NCBI GenBank assembly: GCA_017499595.2
Contig: CM038999.1
Location: 4,030,001 to 4,094,000, forward strand
Direction of reading: 5' to 3'
DNA from: Psilocybe cubensis
Taxonomy: Eukaryota
Length of the DNA: 64,000 bases
Both the position numbers and the translations under genes were made by a program. Of this stretch, positions 40,593 through 64,000 are shown piece by piece. Every line of letters begins with the position of its first letter. The stretch's first letter is position 1. The notes under the pieces were generated by a model that ran no database searches, was not told the DNA's origin, and saw nothing but the letters and a program-made list of their open reading frames with translations.

Positions 40593-41306
40593 CTAGGTAA
40601 CGGTGAGTTGCCACTCATCCGGACGACGCCCAGCAGAAATGCCGAGAAAACGTGATCGCCCCATCAAAAAGTCGACGCGTTTCATGCCACCGCGTTTCTC
40701 CTCCTCGTAGTGTCGGCTGCTCCGCATCCGCCTGTAACGCTGCTCGTACGCGCGGGTCGCGCGTCTCTGGTCGCTTTCAGACGGGAGAGAATTGAACTCG
40801 GACTGGGAGATGTTCGTGCGCAGCGAACGGTAGATAGCATCAAACACGTCCTCGAGTGTGATGTACGAGCCATTTGATGCGTGAACCTTGATTGTCCATG
40901 GCAGATACGAACAAGTGATTTTCATGCTGGCGAGTGGATGGCTGGTGGCTGCTTCGCAAAGTGCTCTGCTGGAAACTGGGTGATGATGACGCGACATCGT
41001 AGAGGGGTGATCGACGATATCCCATGAAACAGCATTGGGCTCCAAGTAGGGGTGCAGACGAATATGTACTGAGCGCCTTGAAGGTACTGGGTAAGTGGGC
41101 TGCTTTACGGGAGCATACGAAGGCACATATGAGTAAGGTGAAGGCCCAGGAAGGCCCAATGGTGTGGCAGATGGGGGAGTTATAGGTCCTGAAGATGATG
41201 GCACTGTAGACGTGGAAAAGGATAGAGCTGGTGTTGGCGTTTGGGGAGGGGAGTGGAAGATGTTCTTGTACGCAAAGCGTACTTGCTTGTTAGCTTTAGC
41301 TGGCAT
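40593..41306 (-). CDS. DUF6699-family protein with Pro/Ser-rich N-terminus
   Basis: LHPYL...WDI, EAATSHPL, LPWTIKV, ITLEDVFDAIYRSL, KRVDFLMGRSRFLGI pattern. Confidence 0.85.
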   Translation of the reverse strand: MPAKANKQVRFAYKNIFHSPPQTPTPALSFSTSTVPSSSGPITPPSATPLGLPGPSPYSYVPSYAPVKQPTYPVPSRRSVHIRLHPYLEPNAVSWDIVDHPSTMSRHHHPVSSRALCEAATSHPLASMKITCSYLPWTIKVHASNGSYITLEDVFDAIYRSLRTNISQSEFNSLPSESDQRRATRAYEQRYRRMRSSRHYEEEKRGGMKRVDFLMGRSRFLGISAGRRPDEWQLTVT

Positions 41307-43179
41307 TGGAATGAGGACGATACGCTGGTTGCAATAAGATATTGAGATGGGGAAGAAAATGTGTGTTGGGGGATCTTCTGTAGATTTACATCCGTCTTTT
41401 TATTAATGTCCTACATCCCGTAGAGGTATCGCCACATACTTTCGCGTATTTAAATTTGATGTCAGGGTCCTACGCCTGAAGTCAAATTCCGTAAGCACTG
41501 CCCTCCCTCGAGACGCTCCAAAATGGGCGATGCCAGCCAAGCTTTGAGGTCTAAAAATGGAACGTCAACCACAGAATGGCTGATATAACAACAGATGGTG
41601 CTCACAGGGTGGCAATAGTCTGTTAGTTCGCTCCAGACGCGGAATCAGGTCTTCAGAAGCAATAGAAACTGCTCAAACAACGTACTCACGAATCGGAAAC
41701 TTGACGGAATTCCAAGGTAAATTAAGGTTCCGCAATCGCGGCGTGAGAACTATGATGCAGTTTTCAATTGCGCTAGCTAGCCTTGGAAGGAATAAGCGCT
41801 TTCTCTCCTTGTTGTTGGAGTACTTTCCATTTTCCGAGTCGACTTTCACTTTAATGACTCCTCTCAGGGAGCCTGGACAGCATCTTCGAGTCAAAATTTG
41901 GAGATTTGAGGAGCGCGATGACGGGGTAGATAAGCAATTCATTATAGCGTAGGGCAGTGATCACAGTGGAGAGAGGGCTAAGGGCGTATACGGATTATGC
42001 TCACCGTAGTAGGTGTCAGAGAGGGGGACGGAGGATGGCATCCTGACTCCTGAGCTAGTCCAGCCAATCAACTTTAAGCGGGATCGTGGTGAAATGGACA
42101 AGGCGGGCATCGCATGAGTAGTGCACAGCACTTGGCAACCCCATATAGAGAGTCGTCTGTTCCGCCGCCAACATAAACGTCATGTTCGGGTACGAAAAGG
42201 AATTGAGAGCCTCGTGTTACGTTGATATTCCTTGAAGGCGGGAAACGTGTTCCGATGGGTGGTGTAAGCGTGAGATGCGCTGCGGATGTTTAATTCGCGA
42301 TGATGCAATGTTTGTCATTATTCCTGAAGTAGTATACGCAGTAACGACAACTCGGTGCATTATTTTCAGTCAGCCTACCAGGCTATGTTAACCATTTTTC
42401 AGTTTCTATAGGAGGGTAAGTTCGAAATTGAGCGTCAATCGTCTTAAATATAGAGCAATAAAGTGTTATAAATCTATAAAGCCTTAAGGAGGGTCCGCTA
42501 TGTTCGCAACTATCTTCACAGAATCGACTTAATTTTACCTGTAAAATTGTGTTGTATTTAGAGATTGACGGATATTGTTAACAGTCATACACAATCTATC
42601 CTAATGTAGAACGCCCAACATTAATTAATCCTTACATAGATCATAAAAAAACCGACAATCAGATCGTGTCACTGTTGGAACTCCCCAGAGTATTCCCAGT
42701 ACACCGTTGCTTGGACAAGACAAGAGTCATGAACTTAAACGACGACGTTTGCATATTGAATGGGCTGCGCATGTTCTACATAAATTCATTTTGGGCCTTA
42801 GGCGCTTAAGGTGATTGCCCGCAGCTCTACAAGGAGCCGTGCGCCTTTTTGCGAGCGCCCGTCGTTTAACAGTTTAATCATTGCAATGGCCCCTATCACA
42901 ATTTTACCCAGAATAGCCGCAGTTTAGGCCGACTTGTATGTCAAGATAAACAAATGCCTTGCTATTCCCCAGGGTCGCAAAATATATCTTTATATGGTGA
43001 ACATGATTTAACAAGTAGAACCTCTAAAGTATTTTGCCTCTCCGCACTGAACGGCGAACTCACTTGTACTAGTACAACTTGTAGTCATATGACCTTTGGT
43101 GGCGTCGGGCGAAGGTTGTTATGTATAGTAGCCTGTTCAACGTCGGAGTGTGTGTTGAGTTTGAAAAGTTGGTCAGAGA

Positions 43180-49140: not shown

Positions 49141-50669
49141 CTACCCACTCTTCCCTCCCCCAACCAACGGAAACGGGCTCGGCGGGAGCCTGCGCCCAGG
49201 CGGTCCCACAGACACACCGAGGTCCGACACTTTGCCCGTCTCAACGTCATACACGAACCCGTGGATAAACACCTCCGTCACCGGTAGATGCGCGCTGCTC
49301 GCCGTCGCGATTGTCGGTCCTGACCCGTTCGTTTCGGTCACGTCTGCATAGTGCTGTTGTTGGGTGGGGTGTGGGGTGGGGGTGAGGTTAGCGATGGATT
49401 GGTACGGATGGAGCATGAACACGTACATCTCGGATCACAGTCGATTTTGCAATCTTCTCCACATTAGATTTTACATTTTCCTCCACAAGCGCACGGAATG
49501 CGGCTGAATAGAAGTTAGAAGAGCAACTGTGATAGCGAGGAGGTGGGGAGTGAGAGAATCAGGCAATGTGCTCACCATCGTGCAGGTGTGGAACTTTGCT
49601 CATGGGTTCAAGTTTGCATGCTTCTCGATGTGCAACGATTTCAGGTCTGCATCAAACCAACCAAAAAGAAACAAAGAATAAGCTGCTGGAGCACATCTCG
49701 GAAGTGAAGTGAAGTGAATGCAAGAAGGTCGTGGAGGTGGAGAACAGAGATAACGCAAGGGTAAACGGGGAATGGATATAAGGATGGGGATGGCAATAGA
49801 TCAGGAGTGATAAAGGACAGATGGAGCATCATGAACAAGGCTCACGCACCGCGTCGAAGTCTCATACAACTCCCTGATAGGCTGTATCCAACACTGCACG
49901 GCGATATCCGCTGGTCGAGTCAACGACATCTTGAGGGGCATCATTGACTCCGCAACTCCTCCACACCCATAGTGGCCCATCACGATGACATGCTTCACTT
50001 TCAGGGATTCCACAGCAAAAGAGAGCACGGCATTCCTAAGAAAGGGTTGCCCATTTTTAGCTCGCAAGTTCCGAAGATGATGACTTCATAGACTCACGAG
50101 TTCAGGTCCTGCTCGTCGAACCGGTTGGCGATGTTTCCGGCTGTAAATATTGTCCCTGGTTGGGCAGAGAAGATGTCCTGCTCGCTAACCCTGCGATATG
50201 GTTGGCAAAGGGGACAGTCAAAACGCTCAACACCTCGTACCGACTGTCCGAACAATCCACCAGCATAAATGGGGGTTCTAAGAAAGATAAATGTGTCAGT
50301 CTAAGCACCATAGAAAACTGCAGGCTACACACTTTGTCCTTCGATTGCCAGCGTCGATAGGAGGCCGGGATTTTGCTCTGACATGTTCGTCACGTACTCA
50401 GTGTTCCCAGTGAAAAGTTCGTTCATATCCGAGATGAATTTTTTGCGAGAACATGACATTAATGTTCGTCGAAAATGGGTAGGGACGGCTGGTGGTGTTG
50501 TACCGTGTGTGGTGTACTGGCTCTGGGGGGAAATCGATGTCGAGCAAAGTTGAGCTTTTTTGCCATGTCGTGTGTGGAATCCGTGGGTCCTTGCTTTCGG
50601 AATGCTGGTCGCGCACGGGCGCGTAAAAGAGGTGCTCGCGATCGATGATACGAGCCTTGACAACGGCAT
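49141..50669 (-). CDS. Beta-class carbonic anhydrase with probable mitochondrial presequence, multi-exon
   Basis: Zn ligands in DCSDSR and VMGHYGCGGV; also GNIAN, AVLSFAVESLKVKHVIV, ALVEENV, FIHGFVYDVETG. N-terminus R/S/T-rich and acid-free. Confidence 0.93.
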
Positions 50670-54436: not shown

Positions 54437-55776
54437 AGTTTGCGTTTTGGACATTGAGTATTTCACGGCACGTTTGTATTCAGTCCCTCCCTCGTATCTC
54501 CTCAGTTACTGACCTATCAGTTGGTGTAGGACTTGAATTGATAGTTTAAGAATCAGGTCCATACCTGTCCCATGCGGCCGTCGCCAACTATTACGTACGA
54601 GTATGTACACCATCGTGCTGATCTTGATGATGTGATTGTCGAACGCCGATCGATGATCTTCGCTAGAGTTGATGCTGTTATGTCGGATTGTTCCGACGTC
54701 AACAGAATCGTTTGTCTACGTTTGCCAGGCGATTTTGGAAATAGACAACAAAGGTGGTCACTCGAGCATTGTATAGCATTCTCAGACTGGTAGAGAGTGA
54801 CTGCCACGAGTACCGTTTCGATCAATGGTCTTTCTCATTTTTCATTTCTAAAGTCGGAAAAGATATTTAGAAAATTACAGTATCCGATGCTGAAGCGAGT
54901 CGGGCTGGGAGGGTAAACGCGCAGCACCCAAGAAAAATGGAAAAAATGGGAGCTCGGGGTCCAAGTTGCGTATCATATGCGACGTTATCTCGCGGACTCT
55001 TCTTTCTTTAGTACACGGGTTGACATTTTTGACACAGTTGTGACAGTTGGGACTTCGAAGGGGCTTGGCAAGTTCGAGAGTTAACGTGTCATGGATACCA
55101 AAGTTGGATGGGCACTACAGGAGTTTGGTGAGTGAACCCGACGCGCAATTTCAAGATGATTTGGCAGCATGCTGTACAAGCGTTTCATGATCGACATTTG
55201 AGTTGTTTAACAAGGTTATACAAAGGTTATGCACCTCACTGGATATAAACTGAAATTCCATAGCTTTGGAACTTTATTTCTACGTCTTTCAATATACAAA
55301 CGAGGCCTCTGTATATTTTTACCACTCACTTTTGGTACTCATTAAAATATGCCCAACAATAGGAAGGAATGCGTTTCGGCCTCGGCGGCGACCGTCAGGG
55401 AATGGGTACTATATCGAAAGCCAGGGAAGACATGCTTCTGAGACGTCTGAGGGATCGTTCACTATCGACTCCAACCCTTGGCTACTTCTCGCTTAACGCA
55501 CGGAAACTCGGATTTTTATCCGCCTAGATGCGAATGACTAATTGCAGGGAAATAATGCCCTGTGGGATAAGGACCTGAAAACCTATAAAAGAAAGCTAGA
55601 ATGGTGAGATAGGTCCCCAAGCTGGTCTTTCCACACTCACATCTCTCATACACTCAACTCAAGTGCCGGTCACTTGTACGTTATATATCACTTTGACTTT
55701 CACCTATGTGGATGTGCTGATACTGATATTTGGTGTTGGATAGAAACTCATACACCACTAACCAACACAATCAAAA

Positions 55777-56095
55777 ATGCAGTTCAAGTCTATCATCTTT
55801 GCCGCTGTCGCCCTCGTTTCCGTTGTTTCTGCCTACCCCACTGAGTCGGGCGCCGACTCTGGAAACCTCTAGTACGCTGTCTTTTACTTATGGCATCCTC
55901 ATCGTTTTTGACATTATGTGTTTGATGAACAGCCGCCGCAGTGGAATTCTCAAATGCAACAACCACAACAACCAGATTGTCTGCGACACTACACACCAGT
56001 GCGCGCGTCCTGGTGCTACGCCAACGCCCAAGCCAGGCAAATATGGAGGCAATAACGCATGGTGCAGCGACTACCACCGCTGCAAGTGCGTTTGA
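55777..56095 (+). CDS. Small secreted 6-Cys peptide precursor (85 aa, single core), two coding exons
   Basis: MQFKSIIFAAVALVSVVSA-YPTESGADSGNLYRR-SGILKCNNHNNQIVCDTTHQCARPGATPTPKPGKYGGNNAWCSDYHRCKCV*. Phase-2 intron 55872-55932, TATA near 55585, 5'-UTR intron 55676-55743. Confidence 0.9.
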
Positions 56096-56847
56096 GGGGT
56101 TGTGTCATCTATCTTGGATCTATGCTTTGGCGGGAATATATGAGTTTTGTATGACGGTCGTTGTGTGATTAAGTCTGACATTGCTATACCTTGAAGGCTT
56201 ATTAATTCGTTTGGAAATTGAATCTGCCTGCAAACAGCTTTTTCAGTTCGAATACAGAGACAGGATTCTCATCTTTTAACAACTGTCAGAAGTTTGTTGA
56301 CCATCGGGTGCTTGGCTTAGAAATGGAGAGCGCTTCGTCAGTTCGTTTGTTATTGAACTCACCTGAGAAGTTTAATAAATACCATATCTTATCTCTACAG
56401 ATGCATTAGTACTATATAGCACCAAATCAAGATATGTTTTCTCATTATATCCCCGAAATAGTCCTCCGGTCATTGCGCCACACCGTTTCGCAGATTATCA
56501 CACCCCATAAAAGCGATAGTGCGCCACAATTGACTGCAGGAGGTATCTACATAGGTGTGTCATTTCACACAGTGAAACATATGTACAACGTCATGATTCC
56601 TACAATGACTTGACTAAAATCAGGCATTTAGTACCACATAAGTCCCTACGCTGTTCAGAATCTTTGGCAAGTATTTGAGTTGTAAAGGCAATAAAGAGAA
56701 GCTAGATACAGTATGCTTCAGGTTAGACGACCGATGAAGACATTCTTATTCTAAGAATTTTTCGTGGAATCTGGAACCTCACTCATTGTATGCTCTTGTA
56801 CAAAAATTCAATATGACGTTATCTAAATACATAGGCGTTTGTAGTAT

Positions 56848-57921
56848 CTAGTGACGACGAGGAGACGCAGGCCTGCGGCTTCCTGGCTTGGTTCGTTGCG
56901 CATTACCACTGATTTCTCCGAGGGGCTGTCTGCATGAACACTCTGTTTCGCAGTGAGAGTTCAAGGTCGGGTGAGCACCGTGCTTGCGAGTCGGTCGGCT
57001 TGATGAGTTAAGGCACTCGTGCGTGGTACCACACATCACCGAGTTGTTGTGCGATGCGCATTGAAGAGGGACGGTACGGCGTGTCAGAGATGAGAACTCA
57101 GTGCTAAAAAAGTGTGACATTAATCGCCATGGGATGGGTTTAAAAGCCAAAGAAGACTTACTCGTATTCTGACCGACGGTGACCTGCCCGGCGACCACCA
57201 GGTGACGCTGGTCTGCGTTTTGTTCGTTGTTCATTCCCACTGATCTCACCCAGAGGTTGTCTGCAGGAGCATTCCGTTTCACAGTGAGAATTCAATGTTG
57301 GGTGCGCGCCATGCCTGCGGGTGGGTCTGCTTGAAGAGGACAGGCACTCATGTGTCGTGGGGCAAATAACCGCGTTGTTATGCGAAGCGCACTGAAGGGG
57401 CACAGTGCGGCGAGTCAGAGAGGTGTACTCCATTCTATTGCCCAGATAAGTTTTTCAAAGGAGCGAGTGGTAGCAGGTCTGGAAACTTACTCCACTTCCC
57501 GGCGGTGACCGGCTCGGCGTCCAGGAGATGCAGGTCTGCGGCTGCTTGGCTTCTTGCGTTGCTCGTTGCCACTGATTTCTCCGAGAGGTTGACGACAAGA
57601 GCACTCCGTCTCGCAGTGCGAATTGAGCGTGGCATGAGCGCCATGCTTACGGGTTGGCCTGCTCGATGAGCTCAAGCACTCATGTGTCGTTGGGCAGATT
57701 ATTGCATTATTGTGCGAGGCGCATTGTAAAGGTACGGTGCGACGAGTGAGCGAGCTGTACTCGGCACTGTAAAGGATATCTGTCAGGAGTTGCAGTGCGA
57801 TGAGAAATTCGAATACTAACTCCTCATATCTTCGATAGAACTCTGGGTCACGAATAGAAGCAGCAATGCTAGATGTAGCAGCGAGAATGACAGCAAAAGC
57901 GACGGTGGTGGAGAAACGCAT
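56848..57921 (-). CDS. Secreted multi-core repeat precursor (301 aa) with three 6-Cys/His-rich cores, Kex2-type dibasic sites
   Basis: Exons 57921-57821, 57766-57491, 57434-57162 and 57103-56848 (906 nt, all introns phase 2). Signal peptide, then three copies of SLTRR-TVPLQCASHNNxxxCxTTHECLxSSSRPTRxHGAHxTLNSHCETECSCRQPLGEISGN plus an Arg-rich linker. Confidence 0.93.
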
Positions 57922-58816
57922 GTTGAATATTTGTTAGATAATCGCTAATGAAAACGGAAGACGGCGACCTGGTCAGTAAACATTCATATTGAGGGATGTA
58001 AAGGCTTTACCAGTGACCGGCACTTTGAGTAATTGAGTGGGGAAGCGCAGCTTGAAGAAAAGATTTCAGTTCAAACAGGCTTTTATATCCTTTGAAGTGT
58101 ATATCGATGTTCCGTTGTCTATCGCATACTTAACTGTAGATATGAAACCAACAAGATGCCCATCATGAGACCCCTGGCCTTGGAGCAACACATTCTCACA
58201 GAACAGGCATCAATTATGACTTTTTCCTATCTTGGTTTGTCCCTTTGCATGCAAATCGCATAGGCGGCGGTGACACAATCGGATTTTCTTTGGCGTCTGA
58301 GGAATGATCGACCTACAAATGATTGCTGCATAGTTAAGATGTACGGTTTACTTGAACCCAGACAATTTCATAATTGCCATTCTGGGCTTATACTTTGTTG
58401 TTTAAAATCATATTTGGAGCGAGTACTGGCTGCTGGCACTGGTGCATGACGAATTACAAGCAAATATTCAATAAATCTCTTTCAAACTTCAAATCACGCT
58501 CCAAGTAGTCTAACTTCGTTGGAGTGTAGTAGATCATGGAACAGAGAAAAATATTCGGAGAGGGCAGTAATTTTAGACATAGACTTCCTCGTTCATTCTG
58601 TGTGGCTTCTTTGGCACATTGTAAAAGTTGCAGTGGAGTGGAGTTAAAGTTATTGTTCAGGACGATGACGACTTGGTCCAAAACGACCACAGTGTAACTG
58701 TAACAGGATGAAAAATTGCATAAATGGAGAGCACGGCTGAACCGGGCTGGTTGCTAAGATATGAAACTGCAAGTGTCAAGGCCCAGTGAAACTCGAACAT
58801 GCGCCGAGTTGAGATG

Positions 58817-61768: not shown

Positions 61769-64000
61769 CTACTCTTTTAACTCGTCTTGAACATAACCTG
61801 TCATCTCTGTATCATCCAGCCCCGATTTTTCTATCACAAACCACCAGGATTGCCCTAAAAATTGATCTCCATCTCGGAGCGGTAATGGCTGCATTGATAC
61901 TACTGAAACAATATCAGTAATTTCAATGACAGAAAGACTTTCCTGTCCAATGTATTGACACGCTACAAGGGTGTGATATGACTGTTCTAGCAAATCTGCA
62001 TCAGGTGGGCCATATAACGAGATCAAAGCATAGCCTTGGAATGTTGATTCAATCGGATCCTCGAATAAGAAGTAGTATTGCACTTCTCCAAAACGATATG
62101 TGTTGTTATGAATAATCTATTAATCCAAGTCAAGACACATTGTATAATTTAATTATCAAAATATACCTTGACATTCCGTGTAATCCGGGTATTTGTTGCT
62201 TGCTTTTTGTCTTCACAAAAAACACTGCGGGCAATTTGACTATTTCGAAGGCAAACACGTCCCCATTTACGCACAAACGAAATTCCAAGCTTGCTTTGAA
62301 TCAAATGGCCCTCTGGAAGCTTCTCGGGTCGGCGCTGCCGAGGTGTTAAGAAGATATACCCATTTTCTAGGTCATAAGAATAGGCCGGAAGATGATTAAT
62401 TCCAGTAGAATCTAGATCGGGACACATAGCCTTCAGTGCATTGATTTGAGAACGTCGAAGAGCAATCTGGCAAAGATTTCCATAAATGTTTGAGGGCTGT
62501 CGGATATCCTGGCCCATATCTCCAATTGTTCTCTCCATCGTGAACTGTGAATAATATGCTCCCGGTCCTATGCGAATTGTTTCTTGTGCGCAATGCAAAA
62601 GGGCATGAAGACATGGTCGGCAGAAATGTAAACGGTCCATGCGACGCTGATAGTAAAGGTTTTCATACTCTTCTACAAATTGGATAAAAAAAGAGTATGC
62701 TTCTCGCAACTGGCTTGCTTTGATTTTACGTTGAATTATAATCCGAACACCATGGACTAGTTTGCAAAAGTTTCGCCAATATTTTCCTGGCAACAGTGGT
62801 CGAAGCAAACCTGGTCCAAGACCATAGAGGAGAACAAAATATTCTGTAGCCTTGTAGCCACTAGAGATTTTTTCGGCAGGATTGCGTGGAGAACGATGAA
62901 AAGAGGATGGGAAATACTTTGTTGCTGAAGCAACTGATTGACCGAATTGACTCCATGTGTTCCCAGTTAACACCGCCCAATCCCAAGTATTCTTGCTATC
63001 AGTTTTATCACAGGATAATTGCGCTCGCCACAAAGGAATAAGAAGCTCTCCAATGTTTAGAGAAAGAAGGTGCATCAAGTCGAGAGTAAAGCAGTCGGGA
63101 ACTGGAAGTGTAAATTGGGGATCAAGACCGCTAACAATTGTGGGTTTACTGATTCCTGTTGCCTTGCGATTATTTGTATATTCGGAAGGTCCAAGACCGG
63201 ATGCTACAACTCTAGCCACCTTTGCATTATAAGCTGCAACTGTTTGTCGTTGATTTGCAGTAATATTTCTAAAATCATAATCAGGATGGATGTTGTCTTC
63301 TTCCTGAGCTCCATTCGGACGAAGATGTGCAGCACAATAATGGCCAATTCCTGGTTTATGGCGTCCTTTCATAGCGCATCCTACTCGGCAGCCTTGGGCG
63401 CCATGATGGCCAACGGTTCCAACAAGATCCGCTAGTGCAAGACTATCTGCCAGTTCAAGAAGATTGATTATACGTGAAGAAACTGTTTGATTTTTTAAAC
63501 AGTCCCATACACGTATACCAGCACCATTATTCTCGCGTTGGATTGCCGAAAGATGGTGAAAGCTTTGAAAAAGAAATGAATCTAGATCTTTTGGCTTGTT
63601 TGGACCTGGAACAATAAGTGCTGGTAGAACATGTTTTTTTTTGTATCGTGTCGTGGGATCATAATCAGCAATAATCCAGATAGCAATCCAAGTATCGGAC
63701 TTCTTGTTTTTGTACAGCTGAGCACCGTCAAAGGAAAACATAACCGTAGTATCTGTTTCGGAAAGATGTAGATTTTCGTGAAGCTCCAGATAGTCACTGC
63801 CGCAGAAAATGTCGTCATAAACAGAGTCTACCGTTAGATCACCAAGAATCTCTTCTGTCTTTGTGTGTCTGTAGCGCATGGCTGTAGCACTGTCTTTAGA
63901 ACGCCGAAGTGCCTGTATCTGAGGACCTAGCGGAATAGTGCAAGCTTGTTTTCTAGATACCTTCTTTCCAGATGATGCCAAAACATCCGGCTCATATCGG
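61769..64000 (-). CDS. CACTA/EnSpm (CMC) transposase, Transposase_21/Tnp2-type; 5' end beyond the right edge
   Basis: IPLGPQIQAL, YDDIFCG, FDGAQLYKNK, RYKKKHVLP..IVPGPNKPKDLDSFL, LADS, DLMH, YKATE, LHALLH, GP...QFTMERTIG; intron about 62109-62166 to the final exon with FGEVQYYF. The frame is open to 64000. Confidence 0.93.

Follow-up and report, generated by a model that had tools for sequence, protein, structure and literature searches.

A triplicated pro-domain exon in Psilocybe cubensis encodes a predicted Kex2-type precursor of six-cysteine peptides

The window analysed here, 64,000 nucleotides of Psilocybe cubensis contig CM038999.1 (assembly GCA_017499595.2, positions 4,030,001 to 4,094,000 of the forward strand), contains a minus-strand gene with a coding region at 56848-57921 for a predicted secreted protein of 301 residues. 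The protein is composed almost entirely of three near-identical six-cysteine units, each encoded by its own exon, and the gene originated by triplication of an exon bearing a pro-domain module that occurs singly in related mushrooms and in an adjacent paralog. Judged from the sequence, this module, with its Kex2-type cleavage site, has probably been multiplied into a repeat precursor that releases three peptides of approximately 60-68 residues. The polyprotein idea of the initial annotation, which had been made from the letters of the sequence without database searches, is strengthened.

The gene model has four coding exons (ATG at 57921-57919, stop TAG at 56850-56848; Table 1), which were joined by script into 906 nucleotides without an internal stop. 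Exon 1 (101 nucleotides) consists of 33 codons plus two nucleotides, and exons 2 and 3 (276 and 273 nucleotides) are multiples of three, so that all three introns are in phase 2 and the unit exons are symmetric; exon 4 has 256 nucleotides including the stop, and exons 2-4 carry one unit each. Read by eye, the N-terminus begins with Met-Arg, followed by approximately 19 hydrophobic or small residues ending in Ala-Ala and then by a short charged segment with an Arg-Arg (RR) pair; this hydrophobic leader is kept in the orthologues. The initial annotation had proposed just such a gene, with a signal-type leader and three near-identical units, one per exon bounded by phase-2 introns, and its description was accurate in every detail checked.

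Each unit begins with an acidic segment ending in L-T-R-R and continues with the core, the sequence L-G-E-I-S-G-N, and a basic tail rich in Arg, Ser and Pro. A regular-expression scan found the core spacing C-x8-C-x5-C-x20-C-x3-C-x-C in all three units, with five histidines per core. In protein sequence, unit 1 is 91% identical to unit 2 and 85% identical to unit 3. Within the first 72 codons, DNA identity among the units is 71-76%, and any two of them differ at 41-46 of the 72 third codon positions versus 5-11 first and 5-6 second positions, a concentration of differences on third positions far beyond chance, and the Nei-Gojobori proportions of synonymous (pS 0.78-0.89) and nonsynonymous (pN 0.07-0.11) differences agree with it. 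Synonymous sites are saturated but the protein has been held; thus, the triplication dates far back, and purifying selection has maintained every copy. Exact words common to two units have a maximum length of 9-17 nucleotides, and the introns can no longer be aligned. N-glycosylation sequons are confined to unit 3, which has N-N-S at residue 236 and N-S-S at residue 249 of the joined product (in the region of 57013-57060); they are absent from units 1 and 2 and from the proteins of Psilocybe cyanescens.

Five public sequencing runs contain the stretch; none is recorded as RNA, and two of them, X1 and X2 of one study, are guessed to be RNA. The transcript evidence consists of assembled contigs, not reads, compared with positions 55600-58100. 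Contigs of X1 and X2 skip exactly 57104-57161, 57435-57490 and 57767-57820, the three predicted introns, and a single X1 contig of 911 nucleotides spans 56823-57893 in spliced form. The splice junctions that the initial annotation had put forward as a check are thus all found in these two runs, RNA by guess. X3 contains an identical, unspliced copy of the full stretch and may be the window's source. Because of one more intron, located in the 5' leader of the transcript, the gene extends to at least 58068, beyond the coordinates that the initial annotation had given, and a TATAAAA box upstream of the leader exon is a candidate promoter element. X1 and X2 have no cover over 56104-56775, from which no inference is drawn. 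The mean word depth of the contig of the three-unit gene (56823-57893) is 2420 in X1 and 11 in X2, compared with 42 and 27 for contigs of the paralog; contig depth being no measure of RNA level, this contrast is only a hint of strong condition-dependent expression.

Relatives were sought among 5.8 billion proteins with a word-indexed search and among 1.84 billion representatives with a full HMMER scan; they are few, and those with a named source come from four species in four genera, all Agaricales of the suborder Agaricineae. P. cyanescens has three proteins of three units each (P0005, P0011 and P0012, of 300, 312 and 300 residues), two of them on one 33-kb contig. One unit each is found in two proteins of Flammula alnicola (110 and 212 residues), one of Hebeloma cylindrosporum (113 residues) and two of Crassisporium funariophilum (116 residues each). 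There is one further relative in ENA (P0006, 185 residues), and a single scan of metagenome contigs added four Hebeloma-like single-unit loci. In an alignment of the joined product with P. cyanescens P0005, 222 of 305 columns match; the window is thus from a different, though related, species, and the collections of proteins searched do not contain its protein. Together the relatives constitute a narrow, undescribed protein family: the accession numbers and locus tags of the relatives were found in no paper, and the parts of the literature that were accessible on small secreted proteins of Psilocybe and Hebeloma held nothing on the family. Two members have doubtful gene calls, the 212-residue Flammula protein (P0014), which departs from the family sequence right after P-L-G, probably by a missed intron, and P0006, which starts upstream, runs through the intron before the RR and looks mis-modelled. 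A further candidate, P0009 (E-value 9e-4), was rejected, being 25% identical, without the cysteine frame, and scored highly through its own repeats.

The family has a conserved Kex2-type site. A [KR]R pair ends four to five residues before the first cysteine in all 19 units from 11 proteins, and the P4 residue is Leu in 18 of them, the exception being the mis-modelled P0006, whose matching locus (L003) has Ile. The site reads L-T-R-R, L-Y-R-R or L-E-K-R according to genus, and because the residues around it vary between genera, it is the site itself that is conserved. Kex2 is described as preferring Arg at P1, Lys or Arg at P2, and Leu or another aliphatic residue at P4 (PMC8528282), a motif that the unit sites fit; at the level of the site, the Kex2 reading of the initial annotation holds up. 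Digestion of the mature protein in silico at every KR and RR gives 15 fragments, namely the three cores, short basic pieces, and acidic pieces of 12-13 residues.

The same leader, pro-segment and site are present in the single-unit relatives of Flammula, Hebeloma and Crassisporium, in the four metagenome loci, and in a single-unit paralog that lies tail-to-tail with the three-unit gene (Table 1). The domain of the paralog retains the family's invariant columns (Cys, His, Asn and Thr) and little else, its predicted mature part has 51 residues with an isoelectric point (pI) of 8.9, and a word search with the paralog alone returned no candidate. The Hebeloma-like loci have an intron at the same place as that of the paralog, with the same donor context (CTCTA/GTAC), but in the three-unit gene the intron is nine codons further upstream, ahead of the acidic pro-segment, so that a duplicated exon brings its own pro-segment and cleavage site. 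The building block of the gene comprises a short acidic pro-segment, a Kex2-type site (Leu at P4, Arg-Arg at P2-P1), a six-cysteine domain of approximately 50 residues, the conserved L-G-E-I-S-G-N and a basic Arg/Ser/Pro tail. The exon bearing it could be duplicated because it is flanked by phase-2 introns, and its triplication probably took place in the Psilocybe lineage.

The relationship between the two genes of the window extends to their 5' leaders. A run of 20 nucleotides, TTTTCTTCAAGCTGCGCTTC, is identical between the leader of the three-unit gene and the Hebeloma-like loci, and AGTGC[C/T]GGTCACT ends the leader exon directly before the leader intron in four of four aligned genes. The near-palindromic 13-mer AGTGCCGGTCACT occurs exactly twice in the window, once per gene, versus 0.08 occurrences expected, and a leader intron in the paralog would fit the loose contig ends that X1 and X2 show at 55675 and 55744. 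Folded as RNA, the conserved leader exons showed no sign of structure (z-scores of -0.23, -0.12 and +1.10). The conserved 13-mer may be a DNA control element or may reflect a constraint of the splice context.

A tree of the 19 units, in which one of 12 inner branches is well supported, carries no information on the orthology of units by position. Units 1 and 2 of P. cyanescens P0005 and P0012 are identical in protein, in contrast to the synonymous saturation among the units of the window. The two lineages seem to differ in the extent of repeat homogenisation, and the identity of units 1 and 2 of P0005 would fit homogenisation in the P. cyanescens lineage only. Parallel amino-acid change in all three units was dropped as an explanation; it is unneeded because, with Hebeloma and Flammula as reference, the derived states are those specific to P. 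cyanescens.

An AlphaFold2 model of the 61-residue core, built from a 12-row alignment, has a mean predicted local distance difference test score (pLDDT) of 79.4 and a predicted template modelling score of 0.60. In successive 10-residue blocks over residues 1-50 the pLDDT is 84, 91, 83, 86 and 85, falling to approximately 50 in the tail, and the predicted elements are a helix (residues 9-17), a short strand (19-21) and a helical turn (42-45). This profile would fit a folded bead followed by a flexible linker. The three units match no Pfam family at E ≤10. A PDB sequence search with unit 1 returned only noise (peptidoglycan recognition proteins at E 0.25-0.28), and a search of PDB sequences with the family profile had no match at E ≤10. 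The core model fared likewise in fold searches: Foldseek gave two PDB rows at E of approximately 9, VIA-align wide gave none of 48,161 chains at Z ≥2, a second PDB pass aligned one chain without a match, and BFVD gave eight rows, all at E ≥5. In the ESM Atlas, P0015 reached a best feature score of 0.76, below the lead threshold, with structural rows at template modelling scores <0.5. The initial annotation had not recognised the scaffold and had suggested Pfam and fold searches, which, together with those of PDB sequences, bear it out; for so small and moderately confident a model, the absence of a fold match is a weak negative and no proof of a new fold.

The linkers are very basic (pI approximately 11.9, net charge +6 to +8), as the initial annotation had stated, but the core does not share their cationic flavour (pI 6.45-6.88). 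Nor is the basic stretch merely a linker, since a basic tail also follows the core in the single-unit relatives and is therefore ancestral. The "His-rich" label is correct for the five histidines of each core in the window, but does not describe the family, in which only two histidines are invariant and the rest are lineage-specific. These two lie beside Cys2 and Cys3, within the motifs S-H-N and T-H-x-C, and are found in all aligned members including the diverged paralog; the Hebeloma member and the paralog have three histidines each in total. With a neutral core and only two invariant histidines, the idea of a cationic, His-rich antimicrobial is weakened.

We infer that the precursor is secreted, that each core forms three disulfides, and that cleavage yields three peptides of approximately 60-68 residues. 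The signal peptide would direct the precursor into the endoplasmic reticulum, where each core would fold with its three disulfides; in the late Golgi, a Kex2-like convertase would cut after each L-T-R-R and at the RR sites of the linkers, and a Kex1-like carboxypeptidase would trim the basic ends. The expected products are three near-identical mini-proteins along with small acidic and basic spacer peptides. By our guess, they serve as extracellular peptides of defence or interaction and not as housekeeping proteins. A bolder extension, tentative and on balance doubtful, is that the core represents a disulfide-rich mini-protein fold that is new and limited to a few gilled-mushroom families; that the gene is the first fungal precursor described to multiply a folded pro-domain module, delivering three doses of a bioactive peptide (toxin, antimicrobial or metal-handling) per transcript; and that the two invariant histidines form an active or metal site.

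Several observations weigh against release of three folded peptides as described. With regard to processing, the long loop of the core has RK in units 1 and 3 and RR in unit 2, with no basic pair there in P. cyanescens. The internal RR splits unit 2 in the KR/RR digest, and a convertase cutting at every RR would nick that unit. The Hebeloma tail is without a clean KR or RR, which leaves the C-terminal end of the mature product uncertain, and the count of 19 sites in 19 units overstates their independence, many of the units being close paralogs from approximately six lineages. With regard to the fold and its activity, the alignment behind the model is shallow (12 rows), a single-sequence AlphaFold2 model of full-length P0005 has a pLDDT of 37 and strands where the alignment-based model has a helix, and the near-neutral core does not favour a classical cationic antimicrobial peptide. 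With regard to transcription, the RNA label of X1 and X2 is a guess only, and X4, a run of unknown kind, mixes unspliced contigs with short-sided joints (23-30 letters) at three of the intron positions; should X4 be a DNA run, it would contain an intron-less DNA form or complementary DNA (cDNA) carry-over.

The foremost alternative is a secreted three-domain protein that stays whole or loses only its N-terminal pro-segment, its domains acting together and its basic linkers serving as flexible charged tethers, for example in binding to the cell wall or to polyanions. Because the basic tail accompanies the core even in single-unit relatives, it is more than a spacer; between species, the linkers keep their composition as their sequence drifts, and stretches with multiple dibasic sites occur also in proteins that are never cut. 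Against an intact protein speak the Leu-x-[KR]-R placed at a fixed distance before every core and conserved across genera despite changing surroundings, and the layout of the single-unit forms, which is shared with Kex2-processed pro-domain proteins. We consider this alternative unlikely. The cores might instead be zinc- or copper-binding peptides, with the invariant histidines and some of the cysteines as ligands in place of or besides disulfides, which would be compatible with either mode of processing. The invariance of two histidines in all aligned members and the presence of three more in each unit of the window speak for such a function, but the three extra histidines are not conserved, as the low totals in Hebeloma and the paralog attest; six cysteines in a secreted protein usually mean three disulfides; and no metal-binding family or fold was matched. 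On this evidence metal binding appears quite improbable.

Two other explanations carry little weight. A repeat precursor with Kex2 sites is also the layout of ustiloxin/phomopsin-type precursors (10.1101/218131), in which the repeats would be cores for tailoring enzymes, as in dikaritin-type ribosomally made, post-translationally modified peptides. The cores here are approximately 60 residues with six cysteines instead of a few residues, and none of ten neighbouring open reading frames (ORFs) tested, a partial test of the neighbourhood, matched a tailoring-enzyme family including the DUF3328/UstYa type; the dikaritin-like candidate was accordingly rejected and is very hard to credit. That the three-unit gene is non-functional, a decaying repeat or a chance ORF, has nothing positive in its favour except that the protein of the window is missing from the collections searched, and it is refuted by the spliced contigs and the purifying selection on each unit as well as by the conserved orthologues, which make it practically untenable.

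Table 1. Features of the three-unit gene, its paralog and their surroundings (positions within the window)
Feature	Position	Strand	Basis or remark
TATAAAA box, candidate promoter element	58081..58087	-	upstream of leader exon, 13 nucleotides beyond furthest 5' base of spliced contig (58068)
5' leader exon, observed extent	58011..58068	-	X2 contig piece joined to 57944; ends in 13-mer AGTGCCGGTCACT at 58012-58024
Intron of 5' untranslated region, 66 nucleotides, GT..AG	57945..58010	-	joint 57944/58011 in X2 and X4
Coding exon 1: signal peptide (approximately residues 1-21, read by eye) and start of pro-segment with first RR	57821..57921	-	joint 57766/57821 in X1, X2 and X4
Intron 1, 54 nucleotides, phase 2, GTTAGT...CTGAC...CAG	57767..57820	-	sequence and contig joints; CTGAC is a branch-like site
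Exon 2, unit 1: acidic pro-segment ending L-T-R-R, six-cysteine core, basic tail	57491..57766	-	translation, regular-expression scan
Intron 2, 56 nucleotides, phase 2, GTAAGT...TAG	57435..57490	-	joint 57434/57491 in X1 and X2
Exon 3, unit 2, with internal RR in long loop	57162..57434	-	translation, regular-expression scan
Intron 3, 58 nucleotides, phase 2, GTAAGT...TAG	57104..57161	-	joint 57103/57162 in X1, X2 and X4
Exon 4, unit 3, with short basic tail and stop TAG 56850-56848	56848..57103	-	X1 contig continues to 56823
Single-unit paralog	55777..56095	+	convergent with three-unit gene; spliced joint 55871/55934 in X1 and X2
13-mer leader motif at end of paralog leader exon	55662..55674	+	same as 58012-58024 (-); also in L004 at approximately 2714-2726
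Paralog exon 1: signal-peptide-like start and short pro-segment	55777-55871	+	translation
Paralog intron, phase 2	55872-55932	+	splits codon just before RR
Paralog exon 2: RR, then 51-residue six-cysteine domain	55933-56095	+	domain copy at 55955-56089
DUF6699 protein	40593-41399	-	family match
Beta carbonic anhydrase piece (exon)	49801-50085	-	family match
Tnp2-type transposase fragment	62149-63999	-	below Pfam cut-off (23.5 versus 28.6 bits)

Ten larger ORFs around the gene were scanned for families, seven of them without a match (the other three are in Table 1). The three matches are ordinary surroundings without a link to the gene, and nothing among the ten ORFs suggests a biosynthetic cluster. 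At position 55933, the last base of the paralog's split codon, the window has C but spliced contigs from X1 and X2 have A; the A turns Tyr (TAC) into a stop (TAA), and so the paralog may be broken in that strain or allele, or the model of its exon 1 may be off. X4 also shows a joint at 57103/57164, with two extra letters, and a joint at 57192/57533 that drops most of one unit. Because no exact word longer than 17 nucleotides is common to the units, simple repeat collapse does not account for the latter; a second haplotype, cDNA carry-over or an intron-less copy could have given rise to these odd joints.

The interest of the gene is that fungal Kex2 precursors are familiar chiefly as the origin of short linear peptides or as effectors with a single pro-domain, and here both layouts are joined. 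Duplication of one symmetric exon is a simple route from the layout of a pro-domain effector to that of a repeat precursor. The family is undescribed, its structural relatives were not found in the searches made here, and it is restricted to a few agaric genera with strong selection on each copy. Peptides that proved to be released and active would represent a new scaffold for defence or signalling peptides of mushrooms. At present, the gene is of value as a clean, testable candidate.

Compared with known systems of cysteine-rich peptides, the core does not resemble a defensin. In plectasin- and copsin-type defensins of fungi, Cys2 and Cys3 form a C-x3-C that pairs with a C-x-C formed by Cys5 and Cys6. 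In the core, Cys2 and Cys3 are five residues apart and C-x3-C is formed by Cys4 and Cys5, and there is no match in Pfam at E ≤10 and no fold match in PDB; a cysteine-stabilised alpha-beta defensin was therefore rejected. Plants have polyprotein precursors of cysteine-rich peptides, such as those of the Impatiens Ib-AMP peptides, multi-domain cyclotides and proteinase inhibitors. The LP4 linker derives from a natural polyprotein (PMC5373624). Like the plant polyproteins, the P. cubensis precursor is predicted to hold several copies of a small disulfide-rich peptide in one secreted chain from which spacers are removed, but the kingdom and the proteases are different and the folds are unrelated, making this an analogy only. 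The polypeptides of the KP6 killer toxin are cysteine-rich. Kex2p converts the pre-protoxin of this Ustilago maydis virus toxin into more than one small polypeptide (PMC11119588). The precursor described here would likewise yield more than one small polypeptide by Kex2, but KP6 consists of two different chains from a viral gene. No similarity of the KP6 kind was detected at E ≤0.001 in BFVD or PDB or among the 48,161 chains at Z ≥2, a weak negative given a small, moderately confident model.

Among fungal precursors, the closest comparison is with Kex2-processed repeat proteins (KEPs), of which a survey of 250 fungal secretomes counted 1193, with repeat sizes of 3-352 residues and one class of more than 51 residues; neither Psilocybe nor Hebeloma is mentioned in its main text (PMC6339444). 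KEPs are defined operationally by a predicted signal peptide with no transmembrane segment, at least three similar fragments between KR or RR (or KK) sites, and repeats making up at least 15% of the length (PMC6339444). The P. cubensis protein has three KR/RR-delimited cores that are 85-91% identical, unit 2 being split by its internal RR, and these three 60-residue cores lie in 301 residues; with its signal peptide read by eye, it would be classified as a KEP. Characterised KEPs include Rep1 of Ustilago maydis, the source of 11 repellent peptides (PMC3133707), and MiSSP8 of Laccaria, the source of a DSDW peptide (10.1101/218131). The three-unit protein is similar to KEPs in having a signal peptide and at least three near-identical repeats that are separated by RR and fill most of the protein. 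Unlike the characterised KEPs, which give short, mostly linear peptides or pheromones, each of its repeats is a putatively folded six-cysteine domain with its own pro-segment, belongs to a domain family without a Pfam model, and is encoded by one symmetric exon.

Kex2 substrates have been divided into class 1, repeat precursors that release peptides, and class 2, proteins from which an N-terminal pro-domain is removed, leaving a folded and often cysteine-rich product; the Kex2-processed pro-domain (K2PP) effectors of plant pathogens, such as SnTox3, ToxA and SIX1/4/6, have one mature domain each (PMC8528282). In the single-unit relatives, the paralog and the first unit of the three-unit gene, an N-terminal pro-domain precedes the folded domain and ends, within the first half of the protein, at KR, RR or LxxR, as in K2PP proteins. 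The single-unit relatives and the paralog have the same order of signal peptide, short disordered pro-domain, Leu-x-[KR]-R and cysteine-rich mature domain. The family differs from K2PP effectors in that the folds are unrelated, the module has been iterated three times in the P. cubensis gene, and the hosts are saprotrophic or ectomycorrhizal agarics. As far as the literature was searched, the gene falls within the known class of Kex2-processed fungal precursors and is not a new kind of system. Its single-unit relatives appear to fit class 2, and the three-unit gene, as a class 2 module iterated into what is formally a class 1 precursor, would bridge both classes.

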